This document shows, one piece after another, positions 1 through 41,543 of a stretch of 64,000 bases of DNA. This DNA comes from a virus, in the IMG/VR virus record IMGVR_UViG_3300045988_054118, positions 1-64,000 of that record. The stretch is one strand, 5' to 3'. Numbering within the stretch: the first letter of the stretch is position 1; the number at the start of each line of letters is the position of its first letter. A model generated the notes under the pieces. It saw only the letters and a list, made by a program, of their open reading frames with translations, had not been told where the DNA came from and searched no databases. The translations under genes and the position numbers were made by a program.

Positions 1-12
1 CTCTTCCGATCT
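1..12. other. Residual Illumina adapter (CTCTTCCGATCT) at contig start; marks an assembly edge, not biology
   Basis: Exact match to the 3' end of the TruSeq universal adapter, read directly from positions 1-12. Confidence 0.7.
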
Positions 13-177
13 GTTCCTAAATATTCTCCAACTAGAGCATCTACGTGTTTCTTTAATAAAGGCGTAAACTCTACCGAAGTGGGGCTACCTATTCCGAAGT
101 TTTCTTCCAGATAACGGAACTATTCAGGATCTCTTTTACCATTATAATAATTATAAGCTTTCTGTAACTCATACTTA

Positions 178-459
178 TCATATACAAGTTCCGCAATAGC
201 CTCGTTTGTCTTGTCTATCAATTCCTTCTCTTTCATAACATAAATTATGTTGTTCTGGAGGAAGTTTAGTAGCGTTATAATACTTAACTCTTTGTAACTT
301 CCTACTTCTTAATTCTTCCTTAATAAATGGCAGAAATTCTTCGTCTGGTAAATCTGCTATTATTACTAATGGCATTTCTGACCTATCAAAGTTAAAAGAG
401 ACTTTATACCCAACTGGGTCTAAACTCTCAATATCTAGTCCGCCTATATACTCCATTTT
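178..459 (-). CDS. Hypothetical protein downstream of TerL (start uncertain; the upstream part of track ORF 178..639 overlaps the TerL 3' end in another frame)
   Basis: ORF ending in TGA at 178-180; the TerL frame continues to TGA at 428-430, so the ORF's N-terminal ~60 codons are probably not translated. Confidence 0.35.
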   Translation of the reverse strand, partial: KMEYIGGLDIESLDPVGYKVSFNFDRSEMPLVIIADLPDEEFLPFIKEELRSRKLQRVKYYNATKLPPEQHNLCYEREGIDRQDKRGYCGTCI

Positions 460-2791
460 GTACAAGTCCCTCATATATTCTAGGATCACTTGTTTCAACT
501 CTGTATGGGTCATCATATTCGTTTCTTTGCATATTAAGTTCAGGAGTTTTCTTAGTTGGAATAACTCCAAATCTTTTAATTCCTCTCTCGTCGTAATAGT
601 AACCAAAATCTTGGAACTATTCAACTTCTTTCTCCACAAGTACGGGCTGTCTTCCTGATAGCTCTTGGTCTGCCAACTCAGTCATACCTACAGCGGCTAC
701 AATATCATACTTACCCTTATTTTCATCATTATATGCAGTAAACTATTCTAGCATTTCTTCGAACCATATAGTATGGCAATAGTCTTCTATAAAGGCGGCT
801 GTTAAATCAGTATGCTATTCGATTATAGTTTTTGTAGCAGGAGTTCCATACTATTTAGTAGTTCCATTTCTAACGTCAGTTAGAGTAGCTCTTGGGCGCT
901 TCATAAAATAGTTAAGGCATCCTTTTTCTCTAGCCCAAGTAACCATACCCATACGAGTAGCTTCTATATTTATTTTACAATTATAATAGCGAGCTAAACA
1001 CATAGCTATTTTATAGGCTTCTCTGATGTCTCCAGGTCTATCCTTGTACATAGCAACATACTGAGGGTCATTCATACCAAACGCACGTTTCTTAATCGTT
1101 ATGCAGAAATCAGACGGGTCTCTGGTTTCCTTAGAAGTCTAATTCGCTCCAATATCAATACCGTCTATACCTGCTACATATAAGTCTCGCATCTCTTTAT
1201 AAACTGGAACTTCAAAATCCTAGCCATTATCTTCTGCCTCCTATCTAAGCTTTTCCATTTGTTCTTTATATAAGTCAGACCATATTGGATGCTCTAGAAT
1301 TTTTACTTTGCCATTGCTGTTAGGAATCCATTTAAAACCATCAATATTATCCTAAGTATGTTTATTATTTTTGTAAAAATAATCAATATAACCACATTCG
1401 GGTCTTGGGCCAATTTGTTTAAGTCTTATATTAGCTATCTATTCGGCAACTAAAATTTTATTAAACTTATTAACACCTTCTAGATTAAATGCTTCTTCTG
1501 CATTCCAACAACGTTCAGCGCATTTCTTTAGGTAGTCTTCTGGTACAACTAACAGATTATCTCGCTCCTCCTATAAGAATTTCTTATATTCCACAGTATT
1601 ACATACTCCTCTGTGGTCCATAAATTCTGGATTCAAAGATTGTATAAAGTATGGAATAAAGAATCCACTCTCTATAGTAGTCCCATCCTAAGTCCAATTA
1701 TGTCTAAATGGAAGAATCTTATATGCTCTTGGATTATAGTAAATCTTTTTTAAGCCCTCTAGAGGAGCACCCATATCACCGCCAGTACCTCCAAACAACA
1801 TTGTTCCACGAGGCATACCTTGAACTTCACAAAGTTCTTGACCTTGTACCACAGCGGTATCAAGTCCAGGCCAGGAACCAGCTTCATCATATATTAATAA
1901 ATCTACACGGTCTCCACGAATGTTAGATGGTTTAGCTCCGTTAATTGCTACAACCTCAGATTTAAATCCTACGTCTTCAAACTAACCATTTATTTTGATT
2001 TGTTTACCTGATTTCTTTCTCAAATCCTGGTCAATAAGTCGCAATTTAAAAAATCCTCCTCCAGTACAGGTATTTAAGAATGTAAGAGCATTGTCAAACT
2101 TACTAAAGGTACCCTTAAGGAAGGTATCATTAAAGCAAGTAATCATAACCCTACTTCTTCTAATAACAGAGTACATACGAGCAGAAAGAGAGGCGTTTAT
2201 TTCAGAGAATCCAATAGAACGAGCTTTCATTAAAGCTGCGTGCTTGTGTAGCACCCTAGCCATCTATAGATAATGAAAGAACATATAATGTGATGCAAAG
2301 AATATTGGGAAGTCATTATCAGTACCCTCACCAGAGGCTTTCTACTAGTCAATAGTAGGTAACTAATAGAAATTTAAGAAGAAGTAATTATCTCCAGTAA
2401 TGGTGTATCCATTAACTGTCATTCCATACTTACATCTTCTATATTGCTCTTTCCAAAATTCGTTGTACCGCTTACTATCTCTAAGGTAGGGACAGTATTG
2501 ACCAGTTCGTTTATATACTTCCCTAGTCTCGGTAAACCAATCTGGATTAAAGTCCAATCCATGAGTTTCGTCAATAGGTCTGTATCCAGTTATTTCATAA
2601 GATAAGGTAGGGTCAAATACTTCTATTTTATCTCCTATTTTAACATCCCAATAGTCAGAATTTCTGACCCTTTCCTCTCTTATTTTCTATACTAGTTCTC
2701 TAGCTTCTTTAGCATCCTCTTTCTATTCTTTTTCTCTTACCTAATCTACAATATTCTATATTTCTTCAGGTAATATCTTTTTTCTTGGCAT
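428..2791 (-). CDS. terL: Terminase large subunit (TerL), translated with TAG read as a sense codon (probably Gln); ~787 aa
   Basis: Continuous frame from ATG at 2789-2791 to TGA at 428-430 once TAG is read through (>15 in-frame TAG). Track fragments 2363..2557 and 851..1075 lie in the same frame. The N-terminus reads like a TerL ATPase (…NPDWFTETREVYKRTGQYCPYLRDSK…) and the C-terminus like an RNase H-like nuclease (AGIDGIDIGANQ…MYKDRPGDIREAYKIAMCLARYYNCKINIEATRMG). Confidence 0.75.
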
Positions 2792-2793
2792 AA

Positions 2794-3354
2794 TTAAAAG
2801 TCTCCTGGGTCAAAACCATCCACAGCTCCAGCTCTAACAGTAGATTGTTCAGTAAGTTCTTTCTTAACCTAGTCTTCTAGTGTTATGAGTTCTTCATGAA
2901 CTTTGTGAAGGGTAGCCATTTCCTTCATTACTTTTTCAGCCTGGAATACTGGCTTGCCGTTATTATCACGCTCATTTAAATCTACAATAGTTTCGAAATA
3001 ATCAATAAACTAGTCTGCAGCTCTTTTAGCTGCTTCTAGTAATTTTATTGACTTGTTTGAATCTTGTAACGCTCTGTATTTCCTACAAGCTTCTCTAAAT
3101 ATAGGGTCATTAAATTCTGACTCTGTCAATCCAGAATCACTAATAGCTTCGTCATGTCGTTCATGTTCCGAATACTAACTGTACGGACTTTTCCAGTCTA
3201 TAGCTAAATAAATGTAAGATAGTTCTCTAGTAGCTCTATCCTTTTCTGCAGATTTATCCCTCTAGATTAAAGCCTTAAATTCCTTAACTAGCAATATCTC
3301 TGGTTCATTTATTTCTAGCTATTTAGTTAAAGTGTTATAGTTAAATACATTCAT
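2794..3354 (-). CDS. Hypothetical protein upstream of TerL, recoded with in-frame TAG (small terminase subunit would fit by position only)
   Basis: ATG at 3352-3354, TAA at 2794-2796; several in-frame TAG codons; protein-like translation (MNVFNYNTLTKQLEINEPEILLVKEF…). Confidence 0.5.
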
Positions 3355-3391
3355 AATCATTAATCATTATCATACACATTAGATAATCTTA

Positions 3392-3970
3392 TTATTTCTT
3401 TTTCATTTTGGAACCGCACTTATTGACTTTCATTTTGGAACCACAAGCGTCTTTCTTAGCATATTGTTTTCTGTCAGGAACCCATTTTCCTTCCTGGAAA
3501 TTACCCTTATGTCCCTTATTGGCCATAGTTTCCTAATCATTGTATTTATTGATTGATATAGAATCTCTTGAGGCTTCGTCTCTAGCAGATTTCATATCTT
3601 TCTTATACTAAGCTCTTCCAGCCTTAAATTTATCAACTTCATTAGCTTTCTTAGTAACTTTAGTTCCTTTTTGTGCTTTCTGGCAAGCTTTACAGATTCT
3701 ACCGCCTTGCTTAAAATATACAAGCTCTTCTCCTTCTGGACATACTCCTTTTAGCTTCTTATAATACTCAAGCTTAGCTCCAAGCCTAGCCATTACTCCT
3801 CCTTGCATTTTCTGCATAAATTCCTGATACTTAGCTTTAATGCCGTCTTCTCCTAATTGTTCAGCATAAGCTTGTAAATCCTATTCAGATTGTACTTGTA
3901 TTCCCTACGCAGCGGCATCTTGTATTAGATATGCCATAAATGCTTTTTGTAATTCTTCCTAGTTAGCCAT
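3392..3970 (-). CDS. Hypothetical Lys/Cys-rich protein, recoded (in-frame TAG); includes track ORF 3608..3817
   Basis: ATG at 3968-3970 (overlaps the upstream TAA as TAATG), TAA at 3392-3394. Track ORF 3608..3817 ends at a TAG and the reading continues protein-like through it (…KFKAGRA-Q-YKKDMKSARDE…CGSKMKVNKCGSKMKKK). Confidence 0.55.
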
Positions 3971-4194
3971 TACTCTTCTACTTTAATTAAATCCTTAGTA
4001 TTAAACACTGCTTCCTACATAAGTCCGGAATCAGTAAACCATCTACATCTTAATCCTCGTAATCCTTGGTTATCTTTAAATAAAGCTGCTTCTCTTCTTA
4101 GAACAAGCATAACTGGAGAATGCATTACTTTACACTACCGTAAAGTAACACAATCCCCAGGCTTAAAATAAACTTTTTCATCAATTGTTTCCAT
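3970..4194 (-). CDS. Hypothetical small protein, recoded (2 in-frame TAG)
   Basis: ATG 4192-4194 to TAA 3970-3972; METIDEKVYFKPGDCVTLRQCKVMHSPVML…. Confidence 0.45.
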
Positions 4195-4783
4195 ACTTCA
4201 ATTCGTTTCTTCTTTCAGTTAGCTTTTCGTTAACTACAGCCATAATTCTGTTCTCATTAACTACAACAAATCCAAACTTGTAGAACGGAACCATGCACTC
4301 GCTAGCTATTGTATAGAATACTATATCTCCAGGTTTTAGGAACTCACACTTGTGCCCGACCTCAATAACAGTACCCACTTTAATAAATTGTTGTTCTTCT
4401 TCTATTTCTCCTGTTTCATTAGATTTATATGTTGGAGCAAATCCACCTAAGTCTGTAATTAATCCACTCTTAGTAGTTTTAATTTTTTGAAACGGATTTT
4501 GTTCGAAAGGTTTAATTAATGCATACCCATACATAGGCATAATTTCTACACCATTCATATCCTCAGATAATGATTTGGCGTAAGATTCTAAAGCTGCATT
4601 ATGTTTAGAGAATTTATCTTCTAATTCATCTACTGCTGTATTGAATCTTTCCTGTTTTTCTCTTAATAAAGTTTTATCTGCAGCTTCTCCATTTACTATA
4701 AGGTGCTGTCCTGTACCTTCCATACCAGTTATAGCTAGTGCTAGTTTCTCATTACTGTTTAATTCTGTTCTTAAAGTTTCCAT
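4181..4783 (-). CDS. Hypothetical protein; the C-terminal half resembles a GroES / gp31-like co-chaperonin fold (inference)
   Basis: Standard-code ORF of 200 aa. C-terminal pattern IKP…K…SGLI…(mobile-loop-like)…KVGTVIEVG…LKPGDIVFY resembles Cpn10. Confidence 0.4.
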   Translation of the reverse strand: METLRTELNSNEKLALAITGMEGTGQHLIVNGEAADKTLLREKQERFNTAVDELEDKFSKHNAALESYAKSLSEDMNGVEIMPMYGYALIKPFEQNPFQKIKTTKSGLITDLGGFAPTYKSNETGEIEEEQQFIKVGTVIEVGHKCEFLKPGDIVFYTIASECMVPFYKFGFVVVNENRIMAVVNEKLTERRNELKYGNN

Positions 4784-4791
4784 AATTCATT

Positions 4792-5130
4792 TTACCATTT
4801 ACATAAATCACAATGTTCATCTTCTATTCTAGTTTTGTTCTCTAGTATACAACCACATTCCTCACATACTTCCCCAAATGAAGTCTGTAATTTATGAGGA
4901 CAAGTATTACAAATATTTAATCTTGTGGTTGCTAAATCTTGATTAATTCCAAATATATGGAAATATATACTCTTCAATATTACTAAAGGTTTAGTAAATA
5001 TTGCTTTAATCCATTTCTTTGACATCTTTTCAGTAGGTTCTTGAGTCATAAGTATATAAGCCTTAGTAGGGTTAGCCATTACTGGAGTCCCATATAGTAA
5101 TAAATTATTTACCATTTCTTCGCAGGACAA
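4792..5130 (-). CDS. Cys-rich small protein (paralog of 5109..5324), putative Zn-binding
   Basis: C-terminus CNTCPHK…CEECGCILE…HCDLCKW shares its pattern with the neighbouring ORF. Confidence 0.5.
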   Translation of the reverse strand: MSCEEMVNNLLLYGTPVMANPTKAYILMTQEPTEKMSKKWIKAIFTKPLVILKSIYFHIFGINQDLATTRLNICNTCPHKLQTSFGEVCEECGCILENKTRIEDEHCDLCKW

Positions 5131-5324
5131 TGCTTCTTCTCATTAGGTATCTTTAATTCCAGTAGACATCCGCATCCTTTTATATATCCTTCTTTTGGAC
5201 CAATACTTATGTCATTGTTTTCTGGATTTAAATACAACTGTCCATTACATATTGCATCTTCTTGATTACATATTGGACAGCGTCTACATATTTTCCATCT
5301 TTCTTCTATTTCCTCTAGTGTCAT
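5109..5324 (-). CDS. Cys-rich small protein (paralog of 4792..5130), putative Zn-binding
   Basis: CRRCPICNQ…CGCLLE…HCPAKKW; same motif order as the neighbour. Confidence 0.5.
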   Translation of the reverse strand: MTLEEIEERWKICRRCPICNQEDAICNGQLYLNPENNDISIGPKEGYIKGCGCLLELKIPNEKKHCPAKKW

Positions 5325-5326
5325 AA

Positions 5327-6241
5327 TTAATATTCAATGCGTTGACGTTTCTTTTTATTTTCTGCCAATATAGATTCTTTCTTGTAAAAAGAAAGCATTC
5401 TTATTACTTCATCTTTTAAATATGGTAAGTGATATACTGTCATGTTATCACTGTGGTCGAAGTGTACTAAAACTAAGTCTTCAATTTCAAATTCTGGGTT
5501 TTTCTTCTGAATCATCCAGGCGTAAGTACTTAGCTGAAGGGCATAATGCCAATAATTAACATCATCTAAATTATTTAGAGGATACTTCATCTTAACTGAT
5601 GTCTTAGTTTTAGAATTAAAGAAGCTCTTTGTTTCTATTTTTTTATTAGTCTTCCAGTCACCAATAATTATCTTATTACCTCTTTTAACTAATAAGTCAA
5701 TTTGTCCAGCTATTCTTAGTTTTCCGTCCTCAGATACTCTAGAGATTAGATACTCAGGATATACCCCATTCTCCAAATCTAGATTGTTATAGTCTTTTAT
5801 ACACTCAAACTTACCACCTATTTGATATTTACTTAGATCTATATCCTTCTTCTTTTTGTAAAAAGAGTTTTCCAAATCTGCATGGATTCTAGTTCCTCTC
5901 TCGCAAGAGTTTCTGTTCTCCATATCCCATGCATCTAAGATAGCTTGTTGTTCTTTATTAAACTCGTCTTCTGTAATGTTATGAAGTTCAAGTAGAACTT
6001 TGTCAAATTTCTTAGTATTCAGCAGAGATTTTTTCTCGATAGCCCAATCTTCTTTAGGTAGAAGTTTCTCTAGTGCTTTATAAGCTGACCAGAACTCTTT
6101 ATCAAAGGGTTGGGTGAAAGAATGAATTAAAGTCGTTACAGATATAAATTTCTGTTCTGGCTTTGTAACATCATAATAAATATGAGCTTCCTCTTCGAAA
6201 GCTATGTTCCCATTTTGTTTTGTAATTTTACTTTTGTCCAT
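5327..6241 (-). CDS. PD-(D/E)XK nuclease of the RecB/Cas4-like family (no Fe-S Cys cluster)
   Basis: Motifs IAGQIDLL…IIIGDWKT (D…D/E-x-K) and ALQLSTYAWM (QxxxY) are typical of RecB-family nuclease domains. Confidence 0.6.
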   Translation of the reverse strand: MDKSKITKQNGNIAFEEEAHIYYDVTKPEQKFISVTTLIHSFTQPFDKEFWSAYKALEKLLPKEDWAIEKKSLLNTKKFDKVLLELHNITEDEFNKEQQAILDAWDMENRNSCERGTRIHADLENSFYKKKKDIDLSKYQIGGKFECIKDYNNLDLENGVYPEYLISRVSEDGKLRIAGQIDLLVKRGNKIIIGDWKTNKKIETKSFFNSKTKTSVKMKYPLNNLDDVNYWHYALQLSTYAWMIQKKNPEFEIEDLVLVHFDHSDNMTVYHLPYLKDEVIRMLSFYKKESILAENKKKRQRIEY

Positions 6242-6355
6242 TAGTCATAATTCATTTAATCATTTATCACATTTATCTATATTTATTTGATACTTTTCAA
6301 GTATATTAATATTCTTTGTAAGATACAAATCAATAAATAATACATTATATTAAAA

Positions 6356-6697
6356 ATGTCTAATATGACAAAAATGGTAACATTTGGATGTCCAATTTTT
6401 AAAAACGGGTCAGGCATTCATATTAAAGAGAAAAACAAAGGTAAATTTACTGCCTCTGCTAAGGCTGCAGGATAGTCTGTACAGGAACATGCTAAATCTG
6501 TACTAAACAATCCTAATGCTACTCCTCTTCAGAAGAAGCGTGCTAACTTTGCTAGAAACGCGGCTAAATGGAAACACGAAGATGGAGCTAAGATACATAA
6601 ACCAAGTGGACATAGATCTATTCTAGATAATGGATGGATTCCTACTACTAGATTAAAGAAAGGAAATTATGGATTAATTAAAACAAGAAAGCAATGA
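6356..6697 (+). CDS. Hypothetical basic protein on the plus strand inside the late module, with an in-frame TAG at 6473-6475
   Basis: ATG 6356 to TGA 6695-6697. The translation stays protein-like across the TAG (…SAKAAG-Q-SVQEHAKSVLNNPNATPLQKKRANF…). Confidence 0.5.
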
Positions 6698-6772
6698 ACG
6701 CTGTAGTTAAATTAATTAAAGAATTTATACTTAAGATATATCTTTATTTACTATTTATATTTAATAAGTAAT

Positions 6773-6964
6773 ATGGACTATAATAGAGCAACTCTTTATG
6801 CGGCTACTGGTCGTACTTTATTACTCCCTGGCTGGAAAGGGTATTTTTATTGGGACTATACTAAGAATGAATTAAATTTTAGAAATGGAGACTATCATTT
6901 AGATAACAAATAGCTCAAGGAGAAAGGGGTTATGGAACGTAATGATTGGTATTATATAATATGA
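6773..6964 (+). CDS. Hypothetical small protein with an in-frame TAG at 6911-6913
   Basis: ATG 6773 to TGA 6962-6964, which overlaps the next ATG as ATGA. Confidence 0.4.
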
Positions 6965-7353
6965 TAATTAAAAATAATATTATACCGTTTGGAGGTTATA
7001 AAGTAATTAATCTGTTTGGATTAATATTTACTAAGTCGGATTTGACTGATGAGGATAAGAATCACGAGAATATCCATTCAGTATAGATTTTGGAATGTGC
7101 AATAGCGTTTGCAATACTTATATCTATATTATTTGGATTAGAGTGGGTATGGTTAGCTATTCCATCTTTCTATATCTGGTATGGATTAGAGTATTTAATT
7201 ATACGACTATTAAGACTTAAAGATTCTCAAAATGATTGCTACAGAGATGTAAGCTTTGAAGAAGAAGCTTATATGAATGAAGACAATTTACAGTATCTAG
7301 AAGGATAGAGAAAGATGTTTTCATGGATAAAATATCTAAAAGTTAATGCATAA
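6961..7353 (+). CDS. Membrane protein with two TM helices and a holin-like topology; in-frame TAG at 7084-7086 and 7306-7308; includes track ORF 7090..7308
   Basis: ATG 6961 to TAA 7351-7353. Hydrophobic stretches AIAFAILISILFGLEWVWLAIPSFYIWYGLEYLII. The track ORF is exactly the TAG-to-TAG segment. Confidence 0.5.
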
Positions 7354-7356
7354 CAA

Positions 7357-7401
7357 AATAGGCGAACTTAGACAATTAAGTCTAGGCTCGCCTATTTTTA
7401 T
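7357..7401. terminator. Bidirectional hairpin between convergent genes (nested stems AATAGGCGA…TCGCCTATT, then T-tract)
   Basis: 9-bp outer stem with an inner TAGAC/GTCTA stem, followed by TTTTTATTT; lies between the plus gene ending at 7353 and the minus gene ending at 7398. Confidence 0.6.
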
Positions 7402-7601
7402 TTACTATTATACGTACAAGTGATTCTGTTTGGCTCTTCCCACCAAGGTTTATCTGAAAGTGGAGTTCTGATGCTATTGGGCCAATTTATAATTGGAGTA
7501 GTTTCTTCTACTATAGCCTCCATTATTTTAAATAATGTATCCAAGTCTAGCTCTGGAAGCAGCTCATGAATATTAGTTATTGTTTTCTTATAATTTATCA
7601 T
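7398..7601 (-). CDS. Hypothetical protein
   Basis: Standard-code ORF with a TAA stop. Confidence 0.45.
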   Translation of the reverse strand: MINYKKTITNIHELLPELDLDTLFKIMEAIVEETTPIINWPNSIRTPLSDKPWWEEPNRITCTYNSK

Positions 7602-7808
7602 ATCCTTAAAGTGTTGTTAATAATTACGTAGTATCTACTGACATATTAGTACGATACACTTAGCTTATTTAAGTTGTCTAGATAATCTAAGAACCATTGT
7701 TCGTTTTGTTTTCCTTCTTCTACAATAGTATTAATTAAAGATTCTATAGCTAATAGTGTTATTTCTGCTAGTTCCTCTAATTCCGATTTAGTAAGTTCGT
7801 TATATTTT

Positions 7809-8123
7809 TCAATCAAGTTTAACATAATCCATCCAGTCTTTTATATATGATTTACATTCTTCCAAATCTGGATAGATACTTGTTATAGAGCATCCAGTTT
7901 TCGGATTTTTAAAGTGGTGCATCTTAGCCTCTTCTTTTTTCTCCTCTTCTGTATTTCTATTTAATGTTCTATTCCAATAGTTGTACTTTTCATCTAACAT
8001 TTCCATATCACATTCCTCTAATATTTTCATATTAGGGTTATTCATTATCTTGTCGTATTTTCTCTTTAAATTAGAGACTTTGACAACATCATTTCCATTT
8101 AATACAACTGCACACTGTTTCAT
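7809..8123 (-). CDS. Hypothetical protein
   Basis: ORF with a TGA stop. Confidence 0.45.
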   Translation of the reverse strand: MKQCAVVLNGNDVVKVSNLKRKYDKIMNNPNMKILEECDMEMLDEKYNYWNRTLNRNTEEEKKEEAKMHHFKNPKTGCSITSIYPDLEECKSYIKDWMDYVKLD

Positions 8124-8347
8124 TTCAATACCTTATAAGTACATATCTTGCCTATCTGTTTTCCTTGAATTGTTATTTGCGGAAGAAAATAGCAGGCTTG
8201 ATTTTCAAATTCTTGAGGTACAAAGATATAATCAAACTTACTTCCAACTACCTTCTCACAAACTTTATTCCAATCGTCTCCCTCTTCTATAATAAGAGTT
8301 TTAGCTCCTGTTGGAGTTACTACATAATTCTCATTTAATTTTATCAT
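8120..8347 (-). CDS. Hypothetical protein (start moved to the internal Met so it does not overlap the tRNA)
   Basis: The track ORF 8120..8422 N-terminus overlaps the tRNA at 8365..8436; internal start MIKLNENYVV…. Confidence 0.4.
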   Translation of the reverse strand: MIKLNENYVVTPTGAKTLIIEEGDDWNKVCEKVVGSKFDYIFVPQEFENQACYFLPQITIQGKQIGKICTYKVLK

Positions 8348-8364
8348 AACTATTAATTTTGGCG

Positions 8365-8436
8365 TTGCCCTACTAGGATTCGAACCCAGACTAAATGATT
8401 TAGAGTCATCTGTGCTGACCATTACACCATAGGGCA
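8365..8436 (-). tRNA. Suppressor tRNA, anticodon CUA (reads UAG); Gln-tRNA-derived
   Basis: Cloverleaf read on the minus strand: acceptor TGCCCTA/TAGGGCA, D-stem GTGT/GCAC, anticodon stem GATGA/TCATT with loop CTCTAAA (anticodon CTA), T-arm CTGGG-TTCGAAT-CCTAG. The architecture is nearly identical to the tRNA-Gln(TTG) at 23373..23444. Confidence 0.8.
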
Positions 8437-8441
8437 GTAAC

Positions 8442-8561
8442 TTATTTCTCTTTTAGAGATTTATTTTCTGCTGCCAATTTCTCTAGTTCTTTTCTTAATT
8501 GTTCATTTTCGTGAAATAAAGCCTGCATAGTAGCGTTGATATTAGCTAATAGTATTCTCAT
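8442..8561 (-). CDS. Small coiled-coil protein (39 aa)
   Basis: MRILLANINATMQALFHENEQLRKELEKLAAENKSLKEK; ATG 8559-8561 to TAA 8442-8444. Confidence 0.3.
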   Translation of the reverse strand: MRILLANINATMQALFHENEQLRKELEKLAAENKSLKEK

Positions 8562-8574
8562 TTGAGCAACCTAT

Positions 8575-8976
8575 TCATACATAAGCTTTCAGTTGTTCAA
8601 TTCTCTTTTTAGCTATATCTGACAATGCCATTTTGAATTTAGCAATACCAGCTCTTACTGTTTCTAACTTGCCGCTTTCTAAGCATTCTTGTATTTTATG
8701 AACTTCAAGCTCTCCTAGATATTCGCATACATCTATAAATAAATCATCATCTAAAGATTCTAAATATTTCTGGAATTGGTCTACCTCTTCATTAGCTAGA
8801 CAGCTTTCTTCCTTCTATCTTTCATAAGATATTAATAAGAACAAAGAATCGTCGGCAGATTCGGACTTAATAGTTAGCCCATTACCAGACATATAATATT
8901 CTTGATTCGTATTAATTGCCTCAACTAGCTATTTAAACTAGTCCTAATTTAACAATGTTTCTAAGTCTGTAATCAT
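8575..8976 (-). CDS. Hypothetical acidic protein, recoded (4 in-frame TAG); first gene of the leftward late operon
   Basis: ATG 8974-8976 to TGA 8575-8577; MITDLETLLN-Q-D-Q-FK-Q-LVEAINTNQEYY…. Confidence 0.5.
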
Positions 8977-8999
8977 AATTGTTTTCTTTTTAGTTATAT

Positions 9000-9294
9000 A
9001 CAACAATAACCTCCGAAAAGTTAAACGCAAAGTTAAAAAATTCTAATTCAAATATTATACATATTTTATATATTAAGGGGAAAGCCGGTACAGGTACTTT
9101 ATATAAATAGCCCCCTGGGGTTATTATAAATTCCGACTTTTATATTTGGAGGGTAATTACCTAGATTCCAAAAATTCATAGAGTGAGTGTAGTGGCGGTC
9201 CACAACCCCTTTAGTCCCCCCCTGTATATTGATATAAAACTAAAACAAAAACAAAAATCAATTTCCAGTATTAACATTCTAAAATTTTAAGATT
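9000..9294. promoter_or_regulatory. Divergent intergenic region separating the recoded leftward module from the rightward module; candidate Bacteroidales -7 box TATATTTG at 9141-9148
   Basis: No ORF on either side; TAnnTTTG motif present; genes diverge from here. Confidence 0.45.
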
Positions 9295-9741
9295 ATGACA
9301 CTCGAAGAATTGAAAGACCAGAACGTAAACGCAGTAGAAAGAGCTAAGGCAGTAGTATCAGCATTGGGACTGAAAGGTGATGAACGCTCAGTTGTTGTCG
9401 GCTTGTCAAAGGGCGATAAGTTTAAGTTGGTAGCAATGAACAAGGTAGATTTACCTGCAAATGCCAACCAACCAAATCAAAGCAACTTTACTCCAATCAC
9501 ATTCAGCACTGACACAGGTGCAACCATTGGTGCAAAACACTTTGCGGGCGTAGAAATCGACGACGATGCTCCGGCAATCGGTTCAACTCCGTTGGAAAAT
9601 GCCGTTTTCCTTGTTTATTGCATTGACCACAATGTAACATTTAAGGTAGACAAAAAGGTAACGGAAGACATCGAAGCTACCGCAGACCGCCAAGCCTACA
9701 AGAAAAATACTTACAAGCTGGTAGTGGAAGACTATGATTAA
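9295..9741 (+). CDS. Hypothetical protein (locally GC-richer)
   Basis: ORF of 148 aa, TAA stop. Confidence 0.5.
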   Translation: MTLEELKDQNVNAVERAKAVVSALGLKGDERSVVVGLSKGDKFKLVAMNKVDLPANANQPNQSNFTPITFSTDTGATIGAKHFAGVEIDDDAPAIGSTPLENAVFLVYCIDHNVTFKVDKKVTEDIEATADRQAYKKNTYKLVVEDYD

Positions 9742-10704
9742 AAGATTGGGGAGAAATCCCCTTTCTTTTACATACAAATAAGCTTTGTAGAAATGGACAT
9801 AAGAAAAAAGTTTAAGACTATAAAGTGTTTGTATAATTGGGGCATAATCTATGACCCAAAGACTAATGAAAAGTTAAATTTCAAAGCCAAACGTGTTTAT
9901 TGCGTAACTTCTTGGGCTTGGATTATGACCTATCAAAAGTCAGAAGAAGATATCCCTGAGATAATTAGGATAGTCTTTGTAGATTAACTCTAAGGTACTA
10001 TGAGTTTTAAATAAAGTGCCCAACATGAACCCCATCATCGGAACGTTGGTTAACGGGGAAAACAACAAATCAAATCAAAGTTTTTGTTTAGTTTTAGGAT
10101 TATATCTGGCAGCTTGGAAAGACAAGCAAAATCTTTATACCTATCTGCTAATAGGTTTAGTGTTCAACGCGAAAATTCGGTAAAGGAGAGAAATTGTCCA
10201 CTAAAAAGACCCTCAATTTCCGGACTTTTTCCGATTTTCAAAAAATCCGCCAGAGTAGGAGTTATATAGCTCACACTCTCTATGGACATTATTTAGTATT
10301 TAGCCTATAAAAAGGCAACAAAAAGCGAGGCTACGCAGAAGAGCCTAACACCAAAAATAACTGCTACAAATTCTATGTGCATATTCGCAAACTTGAGCAC
10401 TATAGGATTTAGGTTGAGCTGTAAGGATTGGTCACTTATAGCAATATTATGAGTACTGCTGATATGTCAGTGACCGTACATATCACATATAAAATATGTT
10501 ATACAATTATGTTAGAAGTTGCCAGGTCTAAGAAGCCTGATTAAAATCTCTAGATAGTAAGAGAGAACCTCATAAGGGTTCATTTTCCATCTCGAATCTA
10601 TTCGCAAGTTTTGAGATTAGCTACCTCAGAATTTAGTGAACGTTGTATGTCTGGAAAACATACTAAATAATCTCCTATCTTATACTAGTTGTCAAGATAG
10701 GATT

Positions 10705-10775
10705 TCCCCATTAGTATAATGCTATTGCGCCTTCCTCTAAAGAAGGAGATTCTGGTTCGAGTCCAGAATGGGGGA
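10705..10775 (+). tRNA. Second tRNA-like gene with anticodon CUA (anticodon loop CTCTAAA); D-arm non-canonical
   Basis: Acceptor TCCCCAT/ATGGGGG (one G·U pair), anticodon stem CCTTC/GAAGG with loop CTCTAAA, T-arm TCTGG-TTCGAGT-CCAGA, discriminator A. Confidence 0.55.
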
Positions 10776-11192
10776 ACTTGGTATTTGAAGACTACAACTA
10801 CTTGTAGACTCTGTTGCAGTTAAAGATTATAATGGGTACGCCCTGAGACTAATGCAGAGCATCTCTTATGAATAGAGGTGTCTTATCGTGAGATAAGGCA
10901 AAGTATTGTGAGATTGAGAGAATTACTAGCTAAAATGTTAGAAGAAGACCCAGATTCAAGTAGCAATATCTACAAAGAAATATGGGGAGCTTATACTGCT
11001 GGGATGAACTCCTTGCTCGAGTAGCAACAATTCCAAGCTTGGTGAATTAAAACTAGCTAACCTAATTACTCTTTATAAGGTTGAGAATGTAAAAAGAGAA
11101 TTGGAATGGTAAGCCCATCTCCCTTCGTCCTTTGCTGGTTTAGAAGTGAAACAGAAACCAGCACTTTTTAGTAACTTATAAACTTTTATAAT

Positions 11193-11672
11193 ATGAATAC
11201 ATTAGCATTAGATCATGTAAACAAGCGCGCAGAATTCGTAATGTCGTTTACTATTCCTTTCAAAGCAGTTGAAGATCCAACGTCGCAGGCCAAGTGCTAC
11301 AGTCCGCATGAAGTAATTATGGCATGGCGAGAGGTGTGCATCAAAGCATTACGAATGAGAATCGATGCCTGTATGGAAATGTTGTTCCGCAACAAGGACA
11401 GAGTGATAGGCTCGGACGAACGTGGCGTTTTGTTTAAGAAGAAGAATGGAAACATTCACCACTTTTCTCATGCTAGCTGTTTTGCTATGGAGGCTTTCAT
11501 AGAGATATTGGAAGAAGCAGAGAGTGCCGGGGACATAACTTTCGATGCTCTTCAAATACAGCAACTGATAAAGGCTTTGTACTGGATTCCAGACGAACTG
11601 AAGAACGATCATCAGGGAATAGGTTTCGGAGAACTAATTGACTGCCTGCTCTGCATTTTAGCAACTCTCTGA
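11193..11672 (+). CDS. Hypothetical protein
   Basis: ORF of 159 aa. Confidence 0.5.
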   Translation: MNTLALDHVNKRAEFVMSFTIPFKAVEDPTSQAKCYSPHEVIMAWREVCIKALRMRIDACMEMLFRNKDRVIGSDERGVLFKKKNGNIHHFSHASCFAMEAFIEILEEAESAGDITFDALQIQQLIKALYWIPDELKNDHQGIGFGELIDCLLCILATL

Positions 11673-12186
11673 TAAACGAGTAGGAACTATCGTAATGATA
11701 GCTCTAATAGTTTCATCATTTAATTAGCATATGAAATATAAGATTGAATTTAACTATCGTTACGGTAAAGACTATGTATACTGTAATGAGTACCATGAAG
11801 ATGAGCGGTTCATACAGCCACTTAATTCTAATGGTAAACCCTTATGTACTATTGCAAAGACTAATATATTATCTATTAGAGAATGCAAATAACGCCAATG
11901 CTATAAAGATTGGCAAATTTAAGATTGCACATGGAGATCGAACGCTGAAACATGTGGTAACTAAATAGGAGAGGTCTGGTAGGTTCAAGGTAGTTCCGCT
12001 TAGTGTTTGCCTACTAAGTATCACTACACAGTCAGTTGGAAGACTGACATTTAAAAACTTAATAACTTCCCAAGACATTGAGGGCACCAGTTTCTTTACT
12101 ATAAAATGCGCGCAAACTACCAAAAGGTGTGAGTTGCTGCTTGTAAAGTTTTAGGTGTAAAATGCGATTAATAAAAGAAAAAGATT

Positions 12187-27451: not shown

Positions 27452-27532
27452 TCCGATTTAGCTCAGTCTGGTTAGAGCGTCCGCATCCAAAACATCAGCG
27501 GGAGGTCAGGGGTTCAAATCCTTTAATCGGAA
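27452..27532 (+). tRNA. Aberrant tRNA: canonical acceptor, D and T arms but a 13-nt anticodon loop (TCCGC-ATCCAAAACATCA-GCGGG)
   Basis: Acceptor TCCGATT/AATCGGA, D-arm GCTC-AGTCTGGTTA-GAGC, T-arm AGGGG-TTCAAAT-CCTTT. The only anticodon stem that can form leaves a 13-nt loop. Confidence 0.45.
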
Positions 27533-27723: not shown

Positions 27724-28398
27724 ATGACTAGATTAGAAAAGTATTTAGTAGCAACTGCTACTGAGATTATCGAAGCGGAAACAACTGTTTCTCGCTACTT
27801 TGTCATTGGAAACGTCAAAGTTAGAGTATCAGACCATTTAAGTAAAATGAGTGATGCAGACTTACAAGTGATTATTCCATTGAACGGAGGGACTAAGTAT
27901 ATAGTTACTGTTAAGGATAGTCCTGGAAAATTTCTTGTATGGAATGCAACTCAAATAAAAGACTTTATTCCTTCATTGCAGATTATTAAGGGCTTGAAGG
28001 AAGGAGTGCAACTTAAGCCAAAACCTAAAGACTCTGCAGTTCAGAAGATTCAGCTAGCATTAAATAATAGTAATACCGATGGAGGTTCGTTAACGTTTGA
28101 TGGTACTATTATTGAGTCTAGATTGAAAGAAAAGCAACTTACTTCCAAACAGCGGGAAGTTTTCAGGAGAACTAAATCTACTTGGGATATTTCTCAGATT
28201 GGGACATTACCCAGTATGATTAAAGTAGATTTAGGATTGTCAAATGGTTCTGTAAACGAAGATGTGCAGATATTTCTAACTTGTACATCTTTAACCTACA
28301 AAGAAATTCTGAACATTTATAAAATAATAGTTGTTGATAACCGTATGGTTCCAACTATTAAACTGTTGCAAGAAGCTTATAGCTTGATTGTGCAGTAG
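27724..28398 (+). CDS. Hypothetical protein; the only plus-strand gene here that ends in TAG (read-through would add 6 aa before TAA)
   Basis: ORF of 224 aa ending …LIVQ-TAG; a TAA follows 18 nt later, inside the 5' edge of tRNA-Glu. Confidence 0.5.
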   Translation: MTRLEKYLVATATEIIEAETTVSRYFVIGNVKVRVSDHLSKMSDADLQVIIPLNGGTKYIVTVKDSPGKFLVWNATQIKDFIPSLQIIKGLKEGVQLKPKPKDSAVQKIQLALNNSNTDGGSLTFDGTIIESRLKEKQLTSKQREVFRRTKSTWDISQIGTLPSMIKVDLGLSNGSVNEDVQIFLTCTSLTYKEILNIYKIIVVDNRMVPTIKLLQEAYSLIVQ

Positions 28399-28401
28399 GA
28401 T

Positions 28402-28473
28402 AGCGCCATCATCTAATGGTTAGGATTCAGGCTTTTCACGCCTGCCATACGGGTTCGAATCCCGTTGGCGTTA
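28402..28473 (+). tRNA. tRNA-Glu (anticodon TTC)
   Basis: Acceptor AGCGCCA/TGGCGTT (one G·U), anticodon stem CAGGC/GCCTG with loop TTTTCAC, T-arm ACGGG-TTCGAAT-CCCGT. Confidence 0.7.
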
Positions 28474-28480
28474 CTATGTA

Positions 28481-37116: not shown

Positions 37117-38133
37117 ATGAAGAAAATTTTTAGTATTATTTGTTTGTGTTTAATGTGCGTGTTTGCTAGCGCACAAGTTGTTGAAACTGGAAGTTTGAAA
37201 GATAACTGGTATGTTTCTGGTAATGTAAGTACTACAATTTGGGACAACTCAAGAAGTTGGGCTGAACCTCATGATGTATTAGTAAATATTGCGGTGGGTA
37301 AAGAAATTACTCCTATCTTCGGACTAGAGTTAGATATGATGGCAGGTATGAATCAAGGCAGTAAAACGTTCTTCGATTCCCATAACCTTACAGCTAATGT
37401 AACTACTAATCTAACTAATCTTATTTGTGGATACGAAGGCTCTAGACGTTTATTTGAGCCTGTATTACTGATAGGTGCTGGTTGGTATCATACTTATGGT
37501 GATGTTTATAATAATGTATCTGCAAGAGGTGCAATTAGATGCAACTTTAATATTACTGATAGTTGGGCACTAAATGTTACTCCAGAGTATATGCTACTTC
37601 CAAAGACTACTCCTCTAAATCATGAAGTAAATGTTTATGTAGGAGCTACTTACCGATTTAAGTCTAATAAAGGAAACTTTCCTATGATGAAACTATATAG
37701 TGACGCTGAAGTAGAAAGTCTTAATGCTGCCATTAACGAGTTGAGGGCTAAGAATAGCGAATTGGAATCTCGTAAACCAGTAGAAATAATTAAGACTGAT
37801 ACTATAGTAGTTACTAAGGTAGAACTTCTTACACCTAAAATTCAGTTTTTACAGAACTCTTCTGAAATCTCTACAACTTCTAATGTTGCAGTATCGGAGT
37901 TAGCAGCTTATATTTCAAATAGTGGTAAGTCATATATGATTGAGGGATATGCTTCTGAAGAAGGTCCAGTAGATTTTAATGACAACTTAGCTGTAGCTAG
38001 AGCAGAATCTATGAAGAAGGCCCTTATCAGTTATGGCGCTCCAGAGGATAAGCTTATAGTTAAAGGCTGCGGAAGCACTACTGAGTTTGGAGATAGAGAA
38101 TTTAACAGAATCGTAATCGTAACAGAACAATGA
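37117..38133 (+). CDS. OmpA-family outer-membrane protein (signal peptide, beta-barrel-like N-domain, C-terminal OmpA peptidoglycan-binding domain)
   Basis: Signal peptide MKKIFSIICLCLMCVFASAQ; C-terminus …EGYASEEGPVDFNDNLAVARAESMKKALISYG… matches the OmpA_C fold. Confidence 0.65.
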   Translation: MKKIFSIICLCLMCVFASAQVVETGSLKDNWYVSGNVSTTIWDNSRSWAEPHDVLVNIAVGKEITPIFGLELDMMAGMNQGSKTFFDSHNLTANVTTNLTNLICGYEGSRRLFEPVLLIGAGWYHTYGDVYNNVSARGAIRCNFNITDSWALNVTPEYMLLPKTTPLNHEVNVYVGATYRFKSNKGNFPMMKLYSDAEVESLNAAINELRAKNSELESRKPVEIIKTDTIVVTKVELLTPKIQFLQNSSEISTTSNVAVSELAAYISNSGKSYMIEGYASEEGPVDFNDNLAVARAESMKKALISYGAPEDKLIVKGCGSTTEFGDREFNRIVIVTEQ

Positions 38134-39191: not shown

Positions 39192-40002
39192 GATAATAGG
39201 GCAAGACAAGTTAATTAAGGAAGTTAATAGAATATTTCAGGTATTTGTAAATAGTAATTGCAAGATGAGACCGCACTTTATTCTTACAGGCGAGAGCGGG
39301 TCTGGTAAGAGCTTTACTATTAAACAGTTGTGTGATATGAATGAACTTAACTTTCTAGAAGTTAATGCAGCTCAAATAACTAAAGAGGGTATTTCTGGAA
39401 ATAGTTTAAGCAAAATTCTATCTCCACTTATTAACTATAGTCACACACCTATTGTAGTCTTCGTAGACGAGTTTGATAAACTTTTCATCAACGGAAACAC
39501 TAATAGCCAACTGGCTAATGAATCTACTGCCAGTGTACAGAATGAGTTTCTCAAACTTTTAGAGTCTGATACTACTAGTGTTTTTGGCGATTATGGGAAG
39601 TATATATCAGTCCCTATTGATAATGTACTATTTGTGTTTGCCGGAGCCTTCAATAATGAGCCTCACATTACATTAGATAGACTAAGAGACTTTGGAGTTA
39701 AAACAGAGTTTCTTGGAAGAGTAGGATTAATCTACAATACTAAACCTCTCACTCTAGAGGATTTGTATTCTATTTTGGAGTGTTCAGACTTGTTGCAGAA
39801 TTATCTTGACTTATTCTTTAATGTAAATAGAGAACAAGTCATTAGTGATTTGAAAGGGTATCTCGAAAGTTCTTTTCGCAATAATACTCTTGGAGCAAGA
39901 ACAATTAATACTCTTATTCACCAATACTTTATCAAAGGTGGAAAACTTGAAACTGAAGAAGTAAAAGAAATAACTTTTAACAAAAAATTAGAATGGAAAT
40001 AA
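39178..40002 (+). CDS. ClpX/HslU-like AAA+ ATPase domain protein (no zinc finger)
   Basis: Walker A GESGSGKS, Walker B VVFVDEFDKLF, and ClpX-like segments VQNEFLKLLE and VLFVFAGAF. Confidence 0.6.
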   Translation: MTMSKIIGQDKLIKEVNRIFQVFVNSNCKMRPHFILTGESGSGKSFTIKQLCDMNELNFLEVNAAQITKEGISGNSLSKILSPLINYSHTPIVVFVDEFDKLFINGNTNSQLANESTASVQNEFLKLLESDTTSVFGDYGKYISVPIDNVLFVFAGAFNNEPHITLDRLRDFGVKTEFLGRVGLIYNTKPLTLEDLYSILECSDLLQNYLDLFFNVNREQVISDLKGYLESSFRNNTLGARTINTLIHQYFIKGGKLETEEVKEITFNKKLEWK

Positions 40003-41543
40003 TTAATGCTACAGATGGTTACAAATTGGGCCATCACAGAATGTACCCCGAAGGTACTGAACAAGTTTATAGTAACTGGACTCCTAGAAGTAACAAGTAC
40101 TTTCCAGAAGCTACCGAAGGTTCTGTAGTATTCGGAATCCAATATTTAATTAAAAAGTATTTGATCGACGAATTTAATAAGAATTTCTTTGTATTGCCTA
40201 AAGAGAAAGCTATAGAAATGTTTTATCGGAGAGTCCACAACTTCGTTGGAATTGAGTCCGTGGGATATAGACATATTGAGGCTTTGTATGATTTAGGATA
40301 TCTCCCTATTCGTATTAAAGCGTTGCCAGAAGGTTCAGTATGTCCTATTAGAGTTCCTATGATGACTATTACTAATACGAAACCAGAGTTCTTTTGGTTA
40401 ACTAATTATCTAGAGACTTTGATTAGTTGTACTTTGTGGATGCCTTGTACCTCTGCCACTAGAGCAAGACTCTATAAGAAAGAACTCAAAAGACACTCAG
40501 TACACACTGGATTTCCGGAGGATGTAAACCTGGATTTCTTGTGTCATGACTTCTCTATGAGAGGAATGGCTGGTTTGGAAGCGTCTGTTATTTCTGGTAT
40601 GGCTCATATGACTTCATTTGTAGGAAGTGAAACTATTCCTGCTATTGCAGCTCTTGAAGAGTATTATGGAGCTAATTCGGATAGTGAATTAATTGCTGCT
40701 ACTGTTCCGGCTACTGAACATTCGGTAATGTGTGCAGGAGGAGAAGAGGACGAGTTAGGAACATATAAACGTCTTATTAATGAGTTATATCCTACTGGGT
40801 TTGTTTCTATTGTATCTGATACTTGGGATTTCTGGAATGTAATTGAAAATTTCTTGCCTAAGCTGAAGAAAGACATTATGGCTCGTGATGGTAGAGTAGT
40901 AATCCGTCCTGATAGTGGAGACCCAGTAGATATAATCTGCGGGTTGAGAACTAATCCTCACTTCAATACCAGAATGAAAGAAGGTAAGTATTATTGCTGC
41001 TATGCTCCGTTTAACGACGATGCAGAGTATGTTGAAGTGTCCGAAGGTCAATATTATGGGGCATATTATATGCTTGGTAAAATCTTCGGATGGAATACTA
41101 CTTCAAAGGATTACCGCTATCCTAGCACTAAGGTTGGTCTGCTTTATGGAGATTCTATTACTCTAGAACGTCAAAAGCAAATCTACTTGAGATTAGAAAA
41201 CGCTCATATGGCGGCTTGTAATCTCGTTCTGGGAGTAGGTTCATATTCCTATCAGTATGCAAGTAGAGATAGTCTTGGGTTTGCTATTAAGGCTACTGCT
41301 TGCGTAGTAAATGGCGAGTTGAAAGAAATCTTCAAACATCCTAAAACTGATGATGGTACTAAGAACTCTTTGAAAGGTTTGATTGCTGTCTATAAAGGTC
41401 TGGATGGGAAGTATACTGCTACCGACCAGGTCTCAATCGAGGAAGAAAAAGAGGGATGCTTAGAGACTGTCTTTGAAGATGGTATCTTGAAGAAAGAATA
41501 TTCTCTTGAAGAAATCAGACAAAGAATTGACCATGGACTTTAA
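39993..41543 (+). CDS. nadV: Nicotinamide phosphoribosyltransferase family protein (Nampt/NadV-like; may instead be the nicotinamide-ADP-ribose transferase Namat of NARP1)
   Basis: 516 aa; N-terminus INATDGYKLGHHRMYPEGTEQVYS and overall length typical of NadV/Nampt. Confidence 0.65.
   Translation: MEIINATDGYKLGHHRMYPEGTEQVYSNWTPRSNKYFPEATEGSVVFGIQYLIKKYLIDEFNKNFFVLPKEKAIEMFYRRVHNFVGIESVGYRHIEALYDLGYLPIRIKALPEGSVCPIRVPMMTITNTKPEFFWLTNYLETLISCTLWMPCTSATRARLYKKELKRHSVHTGFPEDVNLDFLCHDFSMRGMAGLEASVISGMAHMTSFVGSETIPAIAALEEYYGANSDSELIAATVPATEHSVMCAGGEEDELGTYKRLINELYPTGFVSIVSDTWDFWNVIENFLPKLKKDIMARDGRVVIRPDSGDPVDIICGLRTNPHFNTRMKEGKYYCCYAPFNDDAEYVEVSEGQYYGAYYMLGKIFGWNTTSKDYRYPSTKVGLLYGDSITLERQKQIYLRLENAHMAACNLVLGVGSYSYQYASRDSLGFAIKATACVVNGELKEIFKHPKTDDGTKNSLKGLIAVYKGLDGKYTATDQVSIEEEKEGCLETVFEDGILKKEYSLEEIRQRIDHGL

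Follow-up and report, generated by a model that had tools for sequence, protein, structure and literature searches.

A conserved glutamine-type phage tRNA with a CUA anticodon is predicted to decode UAG in the recoded late genes of a large crAss-like phage

The stretch of viral DNA analysed here (positions 1 to 64,000 of IMG/VR record IMGVR_UViG_3300045988_054118; hereafter the window) is 64,000 nucleotides (nt) long, about one third of a phage genome, and carries on its minus strand, at positions 8365-8436, a tRNA gene with the anticodon CUA, which we call Sup1. It is very likely that Sup1 is a functional phage amber suppressor of the glutamine (Gln) lineage, predicted to read UAG and to serve the late genes of the phage, in which TAG is recoded. 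A second CUA tRNA, which we call Sup2, lies on the plus strand at 10704-10777, and bears on the question of whether Sup1 is the switch for the change of code.

ARAGORN called 19 tRNAs in the window, among them Sup1, at 8364-8436 on the minus strand with the anticodon cta at position 34. The Rfam family RF00005 matched the same gene at 8365-8436 (minus strand) over model positions 1-71 of 71, with 66.3 bits (gathering score 29; E = 3.2e-12 over the whole window), which is also the score of the tRNA-Gln(UUG) encoded in the window. The original prediction, made from the sequence alone, had placed a 72-nt suppressor tRNA here; its coordinates, length and loop sequence are exact when the Rfam match is read on the minus strand, ARAGORN and Rfam agree on a suppressor-type tRNA with the anticodon CUA, and the check that it had proposed, a call by a tRNA predictor, gave the anticodon cta. 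The anticodon loop, CUCUAAA (C32 U33 C34 U35 A36 A37 A38, at 8405-8399), is a 7-nt loop with U33, in which the anticodon C34 U35 A36 occupies 8403-8401. The cloverleaf is of the standard form: two linker bases separate the acceptor stem from the D stem, the D-loop is 8 nt long and contains GG, the anticodon stem has 5 bp and the variable loop 4 nt, and the T-loop reads UUCGAAU. The acceptor stem begins with U1:A72, the discriminator base is A73 and no CCA is encoded. ARAGORN labels Sup1 as tRNA-Pyl, a label that it prints for any CUA anticodon and that we rejected on structure. A tRNA-Pyl has a single linker base, its D-loop is small (5 nt) and lacks GG, its anticodon stem has 6 bp and its variable loop 3 nt; Sup1 has none of these, and the CUA anticodon is the sole likeness between the two.

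A pattern scan of IMG/VR, in which the search pattern fixed ACTCTAAATC and so required the CUA anticodon, found Sup1 in 57 contigs, mostly of 175-192 kb. The tRNA was also present in all four loci that were fetched solely through homologues (72-83% identity) of the large terminase, TerL. Altogether 62 copies, including that of the window, fall into 11 sequence variants, and the variant in the window, with 30 identical copies, outnumbers every other. The anticodon loop is the same in all 62 copies, a uniformity that the pattern itself selected for except in the four TerL-anchored loci, which also have it. When the 11 variants were aligned with the tRNA-Gln(UUG) of the window (12 sequences), cloverleaf pairing was 100% (252 of 252 pair cells were standard), and both sides had changed in 9 of the 21 pairs, in the acceptor, anticodon and T stems. 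None of 500 shuffles reached the observed values, and slid registers paired to just 44-55%. Sup1 is a genuine, conserved phage tRNA and no chance match. It could still be imagined as a decaying relic or a mere integration target, with UAG being read by a host suppressor or by some other mechanism, and recoded phages with no detectable suppressor tRNA have indeed been described (Yutin 2021, PMC7886860; Borges preprint, bioRxiv 10.1101/2021.08.26.457843). We regard this as extremely improbable in view of the perfect pairing and compensatory changes in three stems, the conserved position, and the anticodon loop, which is unchanged even where the pattern played no part in the selection; besides, no integrase was seen in the region examined.

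As judged from its sequence, Sup1 is an amber suppressor tRNA of glutamine lineage. In a set of 100 unique tRNAs, collected from the window and from loci related to it, the nearest non-suppressor neighbour of Sup1 is tRNA-Gln(UUG), at 78%, with other classes reaching at most 68%. This tRNA, called by ARAGORN, is encoded on the plus strand of the window at 23373-23444. The D- and T-arms of Sup1 had been described as near-copies of those of tRNA-Gln(UUG), and the alignment bears this out: 57 of 73 positions are identical, the D-arm differs by one loop base and the T-arm at two positions, and the two tRNAs have U1:A72, A73 and G10 in common. The first and last of these are also found in tRNA-Gln generally; across the 12 aligned sequences U1:A72 is present in 11 and G10:C25 is invariant. 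The further claim, that Sup1 was derived from tRNA-Gln, stands as to the nearest relative but not as a direct conversion. Between Sup1 and tRNA-Gln(UUG), loop positions 32, 34, 36 and 38 are different, as is the whole anticodon stem, and the acceptor pairs 3:70 and 4:69 are swapped; Sup1 is no one-step derivative of the UUG tRNA.

In E. coli the anticodon is a major identity element for glutaminyl-tRNA synthetase (GlnRS), and supE (glnV44), an amber suppressor that arose from tRNA-Gln(CUG) and has the anticodon CUA, is still charged with Gln. Sup1 resembles supE in being a tRNA of Gln lineage with a CUA anticodon, in which U35 is kept and position 36 is changed from G to A. Among the anticodon elements for GlnRS, U35 and A37 are present in Sup1, with A36 instead of G36 and A38 instead of U38. 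The two suppressors differ: supE arose by point mutation in the host, suppresses weakly and works in a cell where UAG is still a stop codon, whereas Sup1 is encoded by a phage in which TAG is heavily used as sense. Sup1 also differs in having A73, C3:G70 and A38 within its CUCUAAA loop.

The main evidence for recoding comes from the TerL gene (428-2791, minus strand), whose 787 codons include 20 in-frame TAGs; the compared genomes have 18-21. Homologues keep the reading frame through the in-frame TAGs of nine conserved genes (41 TAGs), which suggests that these codons are read through. To see what TAG stands for, codons were compared in the TerL DNA of the window and of four related loci, L001-L004, two of which (L002 and L003) do not differ in codon at any of the columns listed. 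Opposite a TAG in one genome, the others mostly have CAA (36) and CAG (14), then GAA (22) and AAA (13), so that 50 of the roughly 140 sense codons aligned at the TAG columns of these close TerLs are CAA or CAG. Many columns, for example 144, 271, 369, 408, 452, 552, 648, 684 and 710, hold solely TAG and CAA or CAG. Since CAA is two mutations away from TAG, this pattern points to equivalence of the amino acid and not to mutational proximity. The start of the putative portal gene and several small genes nearby likewise have in-frame TAGs at sites that are CAA or CAG in relatives. BLOSUM62 scores summed over the TAG columns of TerL and of the neighbouring gene for a 188-amino-acid (aa) protein are 228 for Gln, 177 for Glu and 76 for Lys. 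TAG is very probably a sense codon, best read as Gln, and the interchange of TAG with CAA and CAG in TerL and its neighbour gives independent support to the decoding that had been proposed from the tRNA. Metaproteomics has shown Gln at TAG in two other crAss-like phages (Peters 2022). We rejected as evidence the Gln seen at TAG positions in 120 database homologues of TerL, because those proteins had been called with a recoded table; the loci fail to give them under code 11. For annotation, the left arm of the genome needs to be translated with TAG as Gln, as otherwise TerL, the portal gene and several small genes fragment.

Several observations weigh against Sup1 as the Gln-inserting decoder of the late genes. 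Of the E. coli-type GlnRS elements outside the anticodon, G2:C71 is present, the discriminator is A73 and not G73, and pair 3:70 is C:G and not G:C; A73 is also found in the phage's own tRNA-Gln(UUG), and the E. coli rule set may not be that of the host. Glu is the second-best fit at TAG in the test with close relatives. When distant TerLs are aligned (those of an Azobacteroides phage and MT835470, which use the standard code, and of cr52_1 and cr115_1, which are TAG-recoded), Gln makes up 14 of 142 residues at the TAG columns, against a background of 3%, and Glu is commoner; most TAG columns fall into regions that are variable or gapped relative to these TerLs, which makes this a weak test. 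The four genes directly downstream of Sup1 contain no TAG. Finally, with a second stop-anticodon tRNA present, Sup1 is perhaps neither the sole nor the first decoder of UAG. The first three of these points might be taken to mean that Sup1 inserts an amino acid other than Gln, for instance Glu or Lys, its altered anticodon, A73 and C3:G70 redirecting it to another synthetase. Of the residues aligned with TAG, Glu and Lys indeed rank second and third in frequency, and position 36, which is altered in Sup1, lies in the anticodon, a major identity element for GlnRS in E. coli. Such a change of identity nevertheless seems very improbable, given that Gln remains the best fit, that many TerL columns hold only TAG and Gln codons, and that Glu and Lys are in any case the usual replacements for Gln. 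The tRNA body of Sup1 is Gln-like, and the CUA anticodon of supE leaves that tRNA charged with Gln; the metaproteomic data from other crAss-like phages also favour Gln.

Insertion of Gln by Sup1, our preferred reading, would serve one part of the window only. The nine TAG-containing genes of the left block (1758 codons) have 41 TAG, 32 CAA and 13 CAG codons, TAG being 48% of all Gln-type codons (41 of 86). Eight minus-strand genes interspersed with them (987 codons) have no TAG, with 20 CAA and 9 CAG, and neither do 29 plus-strand genes of replication and metabolism (8758 codons; 149 CAA, 116 CAG). The latter encode, among others, DnaB-type and SNF2-type helicases, AAA ATPases, a primase-like Toprim domain, the anaerobic ribonucleotide reductase NrdD and the nicotinamide phosphoribosyltransferase NAMPT; being free of TAG, the replication and metabolism genes are readable alike under either code. 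In the plus-strand standard-code open reading frames (ORFs) of at least 100 aa, the stop is TAA or TGA in 62 of 63. The only one that ends in TAG, at 27724-28398, has its stop 3 nt before a tRNA-Glu gene (28402-28474), and read-through would add just five codons, into that tRNA. The 20 largest plus-strand proteins of the window, which spans about a third of the genome, contained no release-factor or synthetase domain.

The heavy use of TAG also bears on the proposal, raised as a possibility in the Discussion of Yutin 2021, that a phage suppressor might be mainly offensive. Sup1 would then read through UAG stops of the host and damage it, defence proteins included, with decoding of the phage TAGs being secondary, and a suppressor does act on all messages in the cell. 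However, as 48% of the Gln-type codons of its recoded genes are TAG, and TerL alone has 20, the phage depends on suppression for its own essential proteins, and nothing in the window bears on host damage. A chiefly offensive Sup1 thus appears decidedly unlikely, although the two roles are not mutually exclusive.

Sup1 lies on the strand of TerL and of the portal gene, 5.6 kb upstream of TerL. This co-orientation, noted in the original prediction, is kept in relatives: in the four loci fetched through TerL a TAG-rich TerL is accompanied by Sup1 on the same strand, 7-9 kb upstream and after a homologue of the same 133-aa gene. Sup1 and TAG recoding occur together in all relatives examined, where Sup1 follows the 133-aa homologue by 5-48 nt and precedes the next gene by about 25-40 nt; in L001 just 7 nt separate the upstream gene from the tRNA. 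Such close packing between genes suggests that Sup1 is co-transcribed with the leftward arm. Scans for promoters (sigma-70 and the Bacteroides-type -33/-7 pattern) and for terminators did no better than shuffled sequence or chance.

Near 9.2 kb both the orientation of the genes and the GC skew switch, and the left block runs leftward from there; its proteins were searched against PHROGs with TAG translated as Gln. First comes the 133-aa gene (8575-8976, minus strand), which has no family match and whose four in-frame TAGs are conserved in relatives. A 39-codon, coiled-coil-like ORF (8445-8561, minus strand) occupies the interval up to Sup1 and stops 5 nt short of the tRNA. Immediately downstream of Sup1 are four small TAG-free genes (7398-8347, minus strand), then an island of three recoded genes on the plus strand (6356-7353; 1, 1 and 2 TAGs), one of which encodes a protease-like membrane protein. 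The TAGs of the island are conserved in relatives at 88-99% protein identity, so recoding is not confined to one strand. Four more TAG-free genes on the minus strand (4181-6241), encoding a GroES-like protein, two small Cys-rich proteins and a PDDEXK-type exonuclease, are followed by the recoded run that leads to TerL and the portal gene: three small minus-strand genes (2794-4194; 188 aa with 5 TAGs, 192 aa with 5 and 74 aa with 2), TerL itself, and the N-terminal 78 codons of a putative portal gene (3-236, minus strand; 1 in-frame TAG), which runs off the window. The portal assignment is taken from its position; the gene downstream of TerL in L001 gave just a faint Pfam match to P22_portal. 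Sup1 had been described as placed inside the recoded module. One recoded gene does lie upstream of it, but with four TAG-free genes downstream and recoded genes on the plus strand too, Sup1 sits at the upstream edge of a block in which recoded and TAG-free genes are mixed. GC skew changes sign within 8000-10000, with the cumulative minimum near 10 kb, which may mark a replication origin or just reflect coding-strand bias; Sup1 is about 1 kb to the left, and Sup2 about 1.5 kb to the right, of the switch.

Sup2, which the original prediction had not mentioned, was called by ARAGORN and matched by Rfam with 51.7 bits. It lies 2.3 kb from Sup1, on the opposite strand and among TAG-free genes. An RNA of the RAGATH-14 family (RF03145), at 10514-10676 on the plus strand, precedes it by 28 nt (162.4 bits against a gathering score of 149.1). 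In the Sup2 family, paired bases have changed in a compensatory manner in both the acceptor and the anticodon stem, and no class of sense tRNA comes closer to Sup2 than 64% among the 100 unique tRNAs. The copy in the window has one extra G in the 3' acceptor strand relative to its closest relative, L015, and a D-loop without GG. Some relatives have CUA as the anticodon of this tRNA, others the ochre-type UUA, and the loops of a few are aberrant ("ta", "gcag"); variant loci include L007 (1214-1284), L055 (3661-3731), L069 (981-1051), L013 (1775-1844), L018 (3072-3144) and others. L069, with the UUA anticodon, is on a contig that is 99.5% identical to the left arm of the window. We rejected the idea that TAA is an additional sense codon in the relatives with UUA, as solely TAG, and never TAA, is found in frame there.

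A Sup2-type tRNA follows RAGATH-14 in 21 of the 23 loci examined; the other two have RAGATH-14 with no tRNA called after it. L001 has a Sup2-like tRNA and no RAGATH-14 match at the gathering score. In relatives, Pistol ribozymes and a RAGATH-1 hammerhead ribozyme occur within 1-2 kb of the RAGATH-14/Sup2 cassette (L010, 11261-11330 and 12240-12308; L029, 4269-4337; L039, 5596-5669), and neither Pistol nor RAGATH-1 was matched in the window at Rfam gathering scores. In the literature searched we found no paper that mentions RAGATH-14, and the word does not occur in the 2017 Weinberg paper. The link of this motif to a suppressor tRNA may therefore be unreported. The cassette, with its switching between CUA and UUA, is the sole lead of this analysis that is possibly new; it connects the decoding of stop codons with an RNA motif whose function is unknown.

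How Sup1 might act can be sketched from supE and from the code-switch model of the Borges preprint. The host GlnRS would charge Sup1, as it does supE in E. coli, and Sup1 would insert Gln at UAG and so allow full-length late proteins to be made; by the same analogies, the suppressor would compete with release factor 1 at UAG, and translation of the late genes would depend on its supply. Lying about 1 kb inside the leftward structural arm, Sup1 is probably cut from the polycistronic transcript that carries the late genes, and its supply would rise together with the messages that need it. As its anticodon is CUA in every copy, also in the four TerL-anchored loci, while that of Sup2 varies, we take Sup1 to be the principal decoder of UAG. 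The original prediction had gone further and called Sup1, co-oriented with the recoded late genes, the likely trans-acting switch for the change of code. This claim is supported in part only: a suppressor tRNA is there, but the existence of Sup2, a second stop-anticodon tRNA on the other strand, means that Sup1 is not the only candidate for a switch. Moreover, since decoding acts in trans, the orientation of Sup1 bears solely on its co-transcription; being co-transcribed with the late genes would make Sup1 a co-expressed enabler rather than an early switch.

Sup1 may thus decode UAG without being a switch at all, as a co-expressed helper that would add to the suppressor supply when late messages are present, while the early trigger is Sup2 behind RAGATH-14, or while timing is set by late transcription. 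We regard this as a serious if minority possibility. Sup2 is on the plus strand among TAG-free genes, its family is conserved with compensatory stem changes and with RAGATH-14 ahead of it in nearly all loci, and the two suppressors flank the switch of orientation and GC skew. In addition, the first gene of the Sup1 arm itself needs suppression of four TAGs, so a suppressor made solely from that arm could not exist beforehand. Against a trigger role for Sup2 stand its anticodon, which may be CUA, UUA or part of an aberrant loop while Sup1 keeps CUA in every copy, the two loci where no tRNA was called after RAGATH-14, and the extra acceptor-stem G and D-loop without GG of the copy in the window, to which no amino-acid identity can be assigned. 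A more elaborate version, which we consider unlikely, is a relay of the two suppressors. Sup2, made early behind a RAGATH-14 leader, would prime translation of the recoded genes, Sup1, on the late arm, would then amplify suppression, and the choice between CUA and UUA would tune leakiness; RAGATH-14 would be a processing or regulatory leader controlling Sup2. Were the relay real, RAGATH-14 would gain a function and the code switch would become a defined RNA circuit.

By the sequence comparisons that follow, the window is part of a crAss-like phage of the Zeta group with a genome of about 190 kb. Its TerL matches Crassvirales terminases at about 26-28% identity and two unannotated human faecal phage records at 44-45%, and has many full-length homologues, with 72-97% identity, on contigs of 180-195 kb. 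Positions 7000-12000 gave no megablast match among phage GenBank records. Two IMG/VR contigs (L052 and L053) are 99.4-99.5% identical to window positions 13-9327, where identity stops; the break, at about 9327, falls exactly at the junction of the divergent arms, which suggests that these genomes are mosaics that recombined there. Genomes of the Zeta group are 145-192 kb long, with many tRNAs, introns and inteins, and with TAG or TGA recoding mostly in late genes (Yutin 2021). The TerL homologue P0003 (1131 aa) carries intein and LAGLIDADG domains, and in L004 a LAGLIDADG ORF lies upstream of TerL and an RVT_1 (reverse-transcriptase) ORF downstream (4813-6747 and 21697-22118), a load that fits the introns and inteins reported for the group.

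The Sup1/TAG = Gln system is already known for these phages (Yutin 2021; Borges preprint; Peters 2022). The closest published case is phage_1 (Ivanova et al. 2014; Supplementary Data 1 of Yutin 2021), of 187,597 nt, listed as TAG|q, zeta_4, with a Sup tRNA of anticodon CTA. It has the same order of tRNAs as the window, the same reading of TAG, a CTA suppressor and a similar size (relatives of the window are 175-195 kb). As compared by the published table, nothing else of substance differs except that one Sup is listed for phage_1 against two CUA tRNAs in the window, so that one was probably missed or left unclassified there. In cr52_1 (Buchavirus copri, NC_055888, Suoliviridae), RefSeq annotates a CUA tRNA directly upstream of TerL as tRNA-Gln. 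As in the window, this tRNA is on the strand of TerL and upstream of it, and TerL is recoded, with 11 TAGs; it also has the same 5' acceptor strand as Sup1, UGCCCUA, and a D-loop like that of Sup1. The cr52_1 tRNA differs in lying 15 nt before TerL instead of 5.6 kb, in its encoded CCA and in its anticodon and T stems, and the TerL of cr52_1 is just about 28% identical to that of the window. The "code change module" described in the Borges preprint for TGA-recoded Jade phages likewise has a phage suppressor tRNA beside recoded late or lysis genes, and was proposed to time their translation. If our interpretation of Sup1 is true, it re-confirms the published picture of large crAss-like gut phages with a Gln-type amber suppressor and with late genes in code 15.

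A scan of a genome collection with the D-arm/T-arm pattern of tRNA-Gln(UUG) returned just two contigs, both phage-like, and no host tRNA-Gln. One of the two, a single-contig metagenome-assembled genome labelled "Bacteroides sp." (L062, DXLM01000001.1, 186,052 nt), matches these phages in size and shares with the window a Ser-Phe-Gln run of tRNAs; it is probably a phage genome that was deposited as bacterial. At 20200-22158, 37117-38133, 39993-41543 and 58069-60237, the TAG-free arm of the window carries auxiliary genes on its plus strand, for an SPFH/Band-7 protein, an OmpA-like outer-membrane beta-barrel protein, the nicotinamide phosphoribosyltransferase and the anaerobic ribonucleotide reductase. 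Two plus-strand Rfam tRNA matches had no ARAGORN call, one at 24204-24280 (30.4 bits) and one at 27452-27532 (51.6 bits); the latter is 81 nt long with an over-long anticodon region, and may be an interrupted or unusual tRNA.

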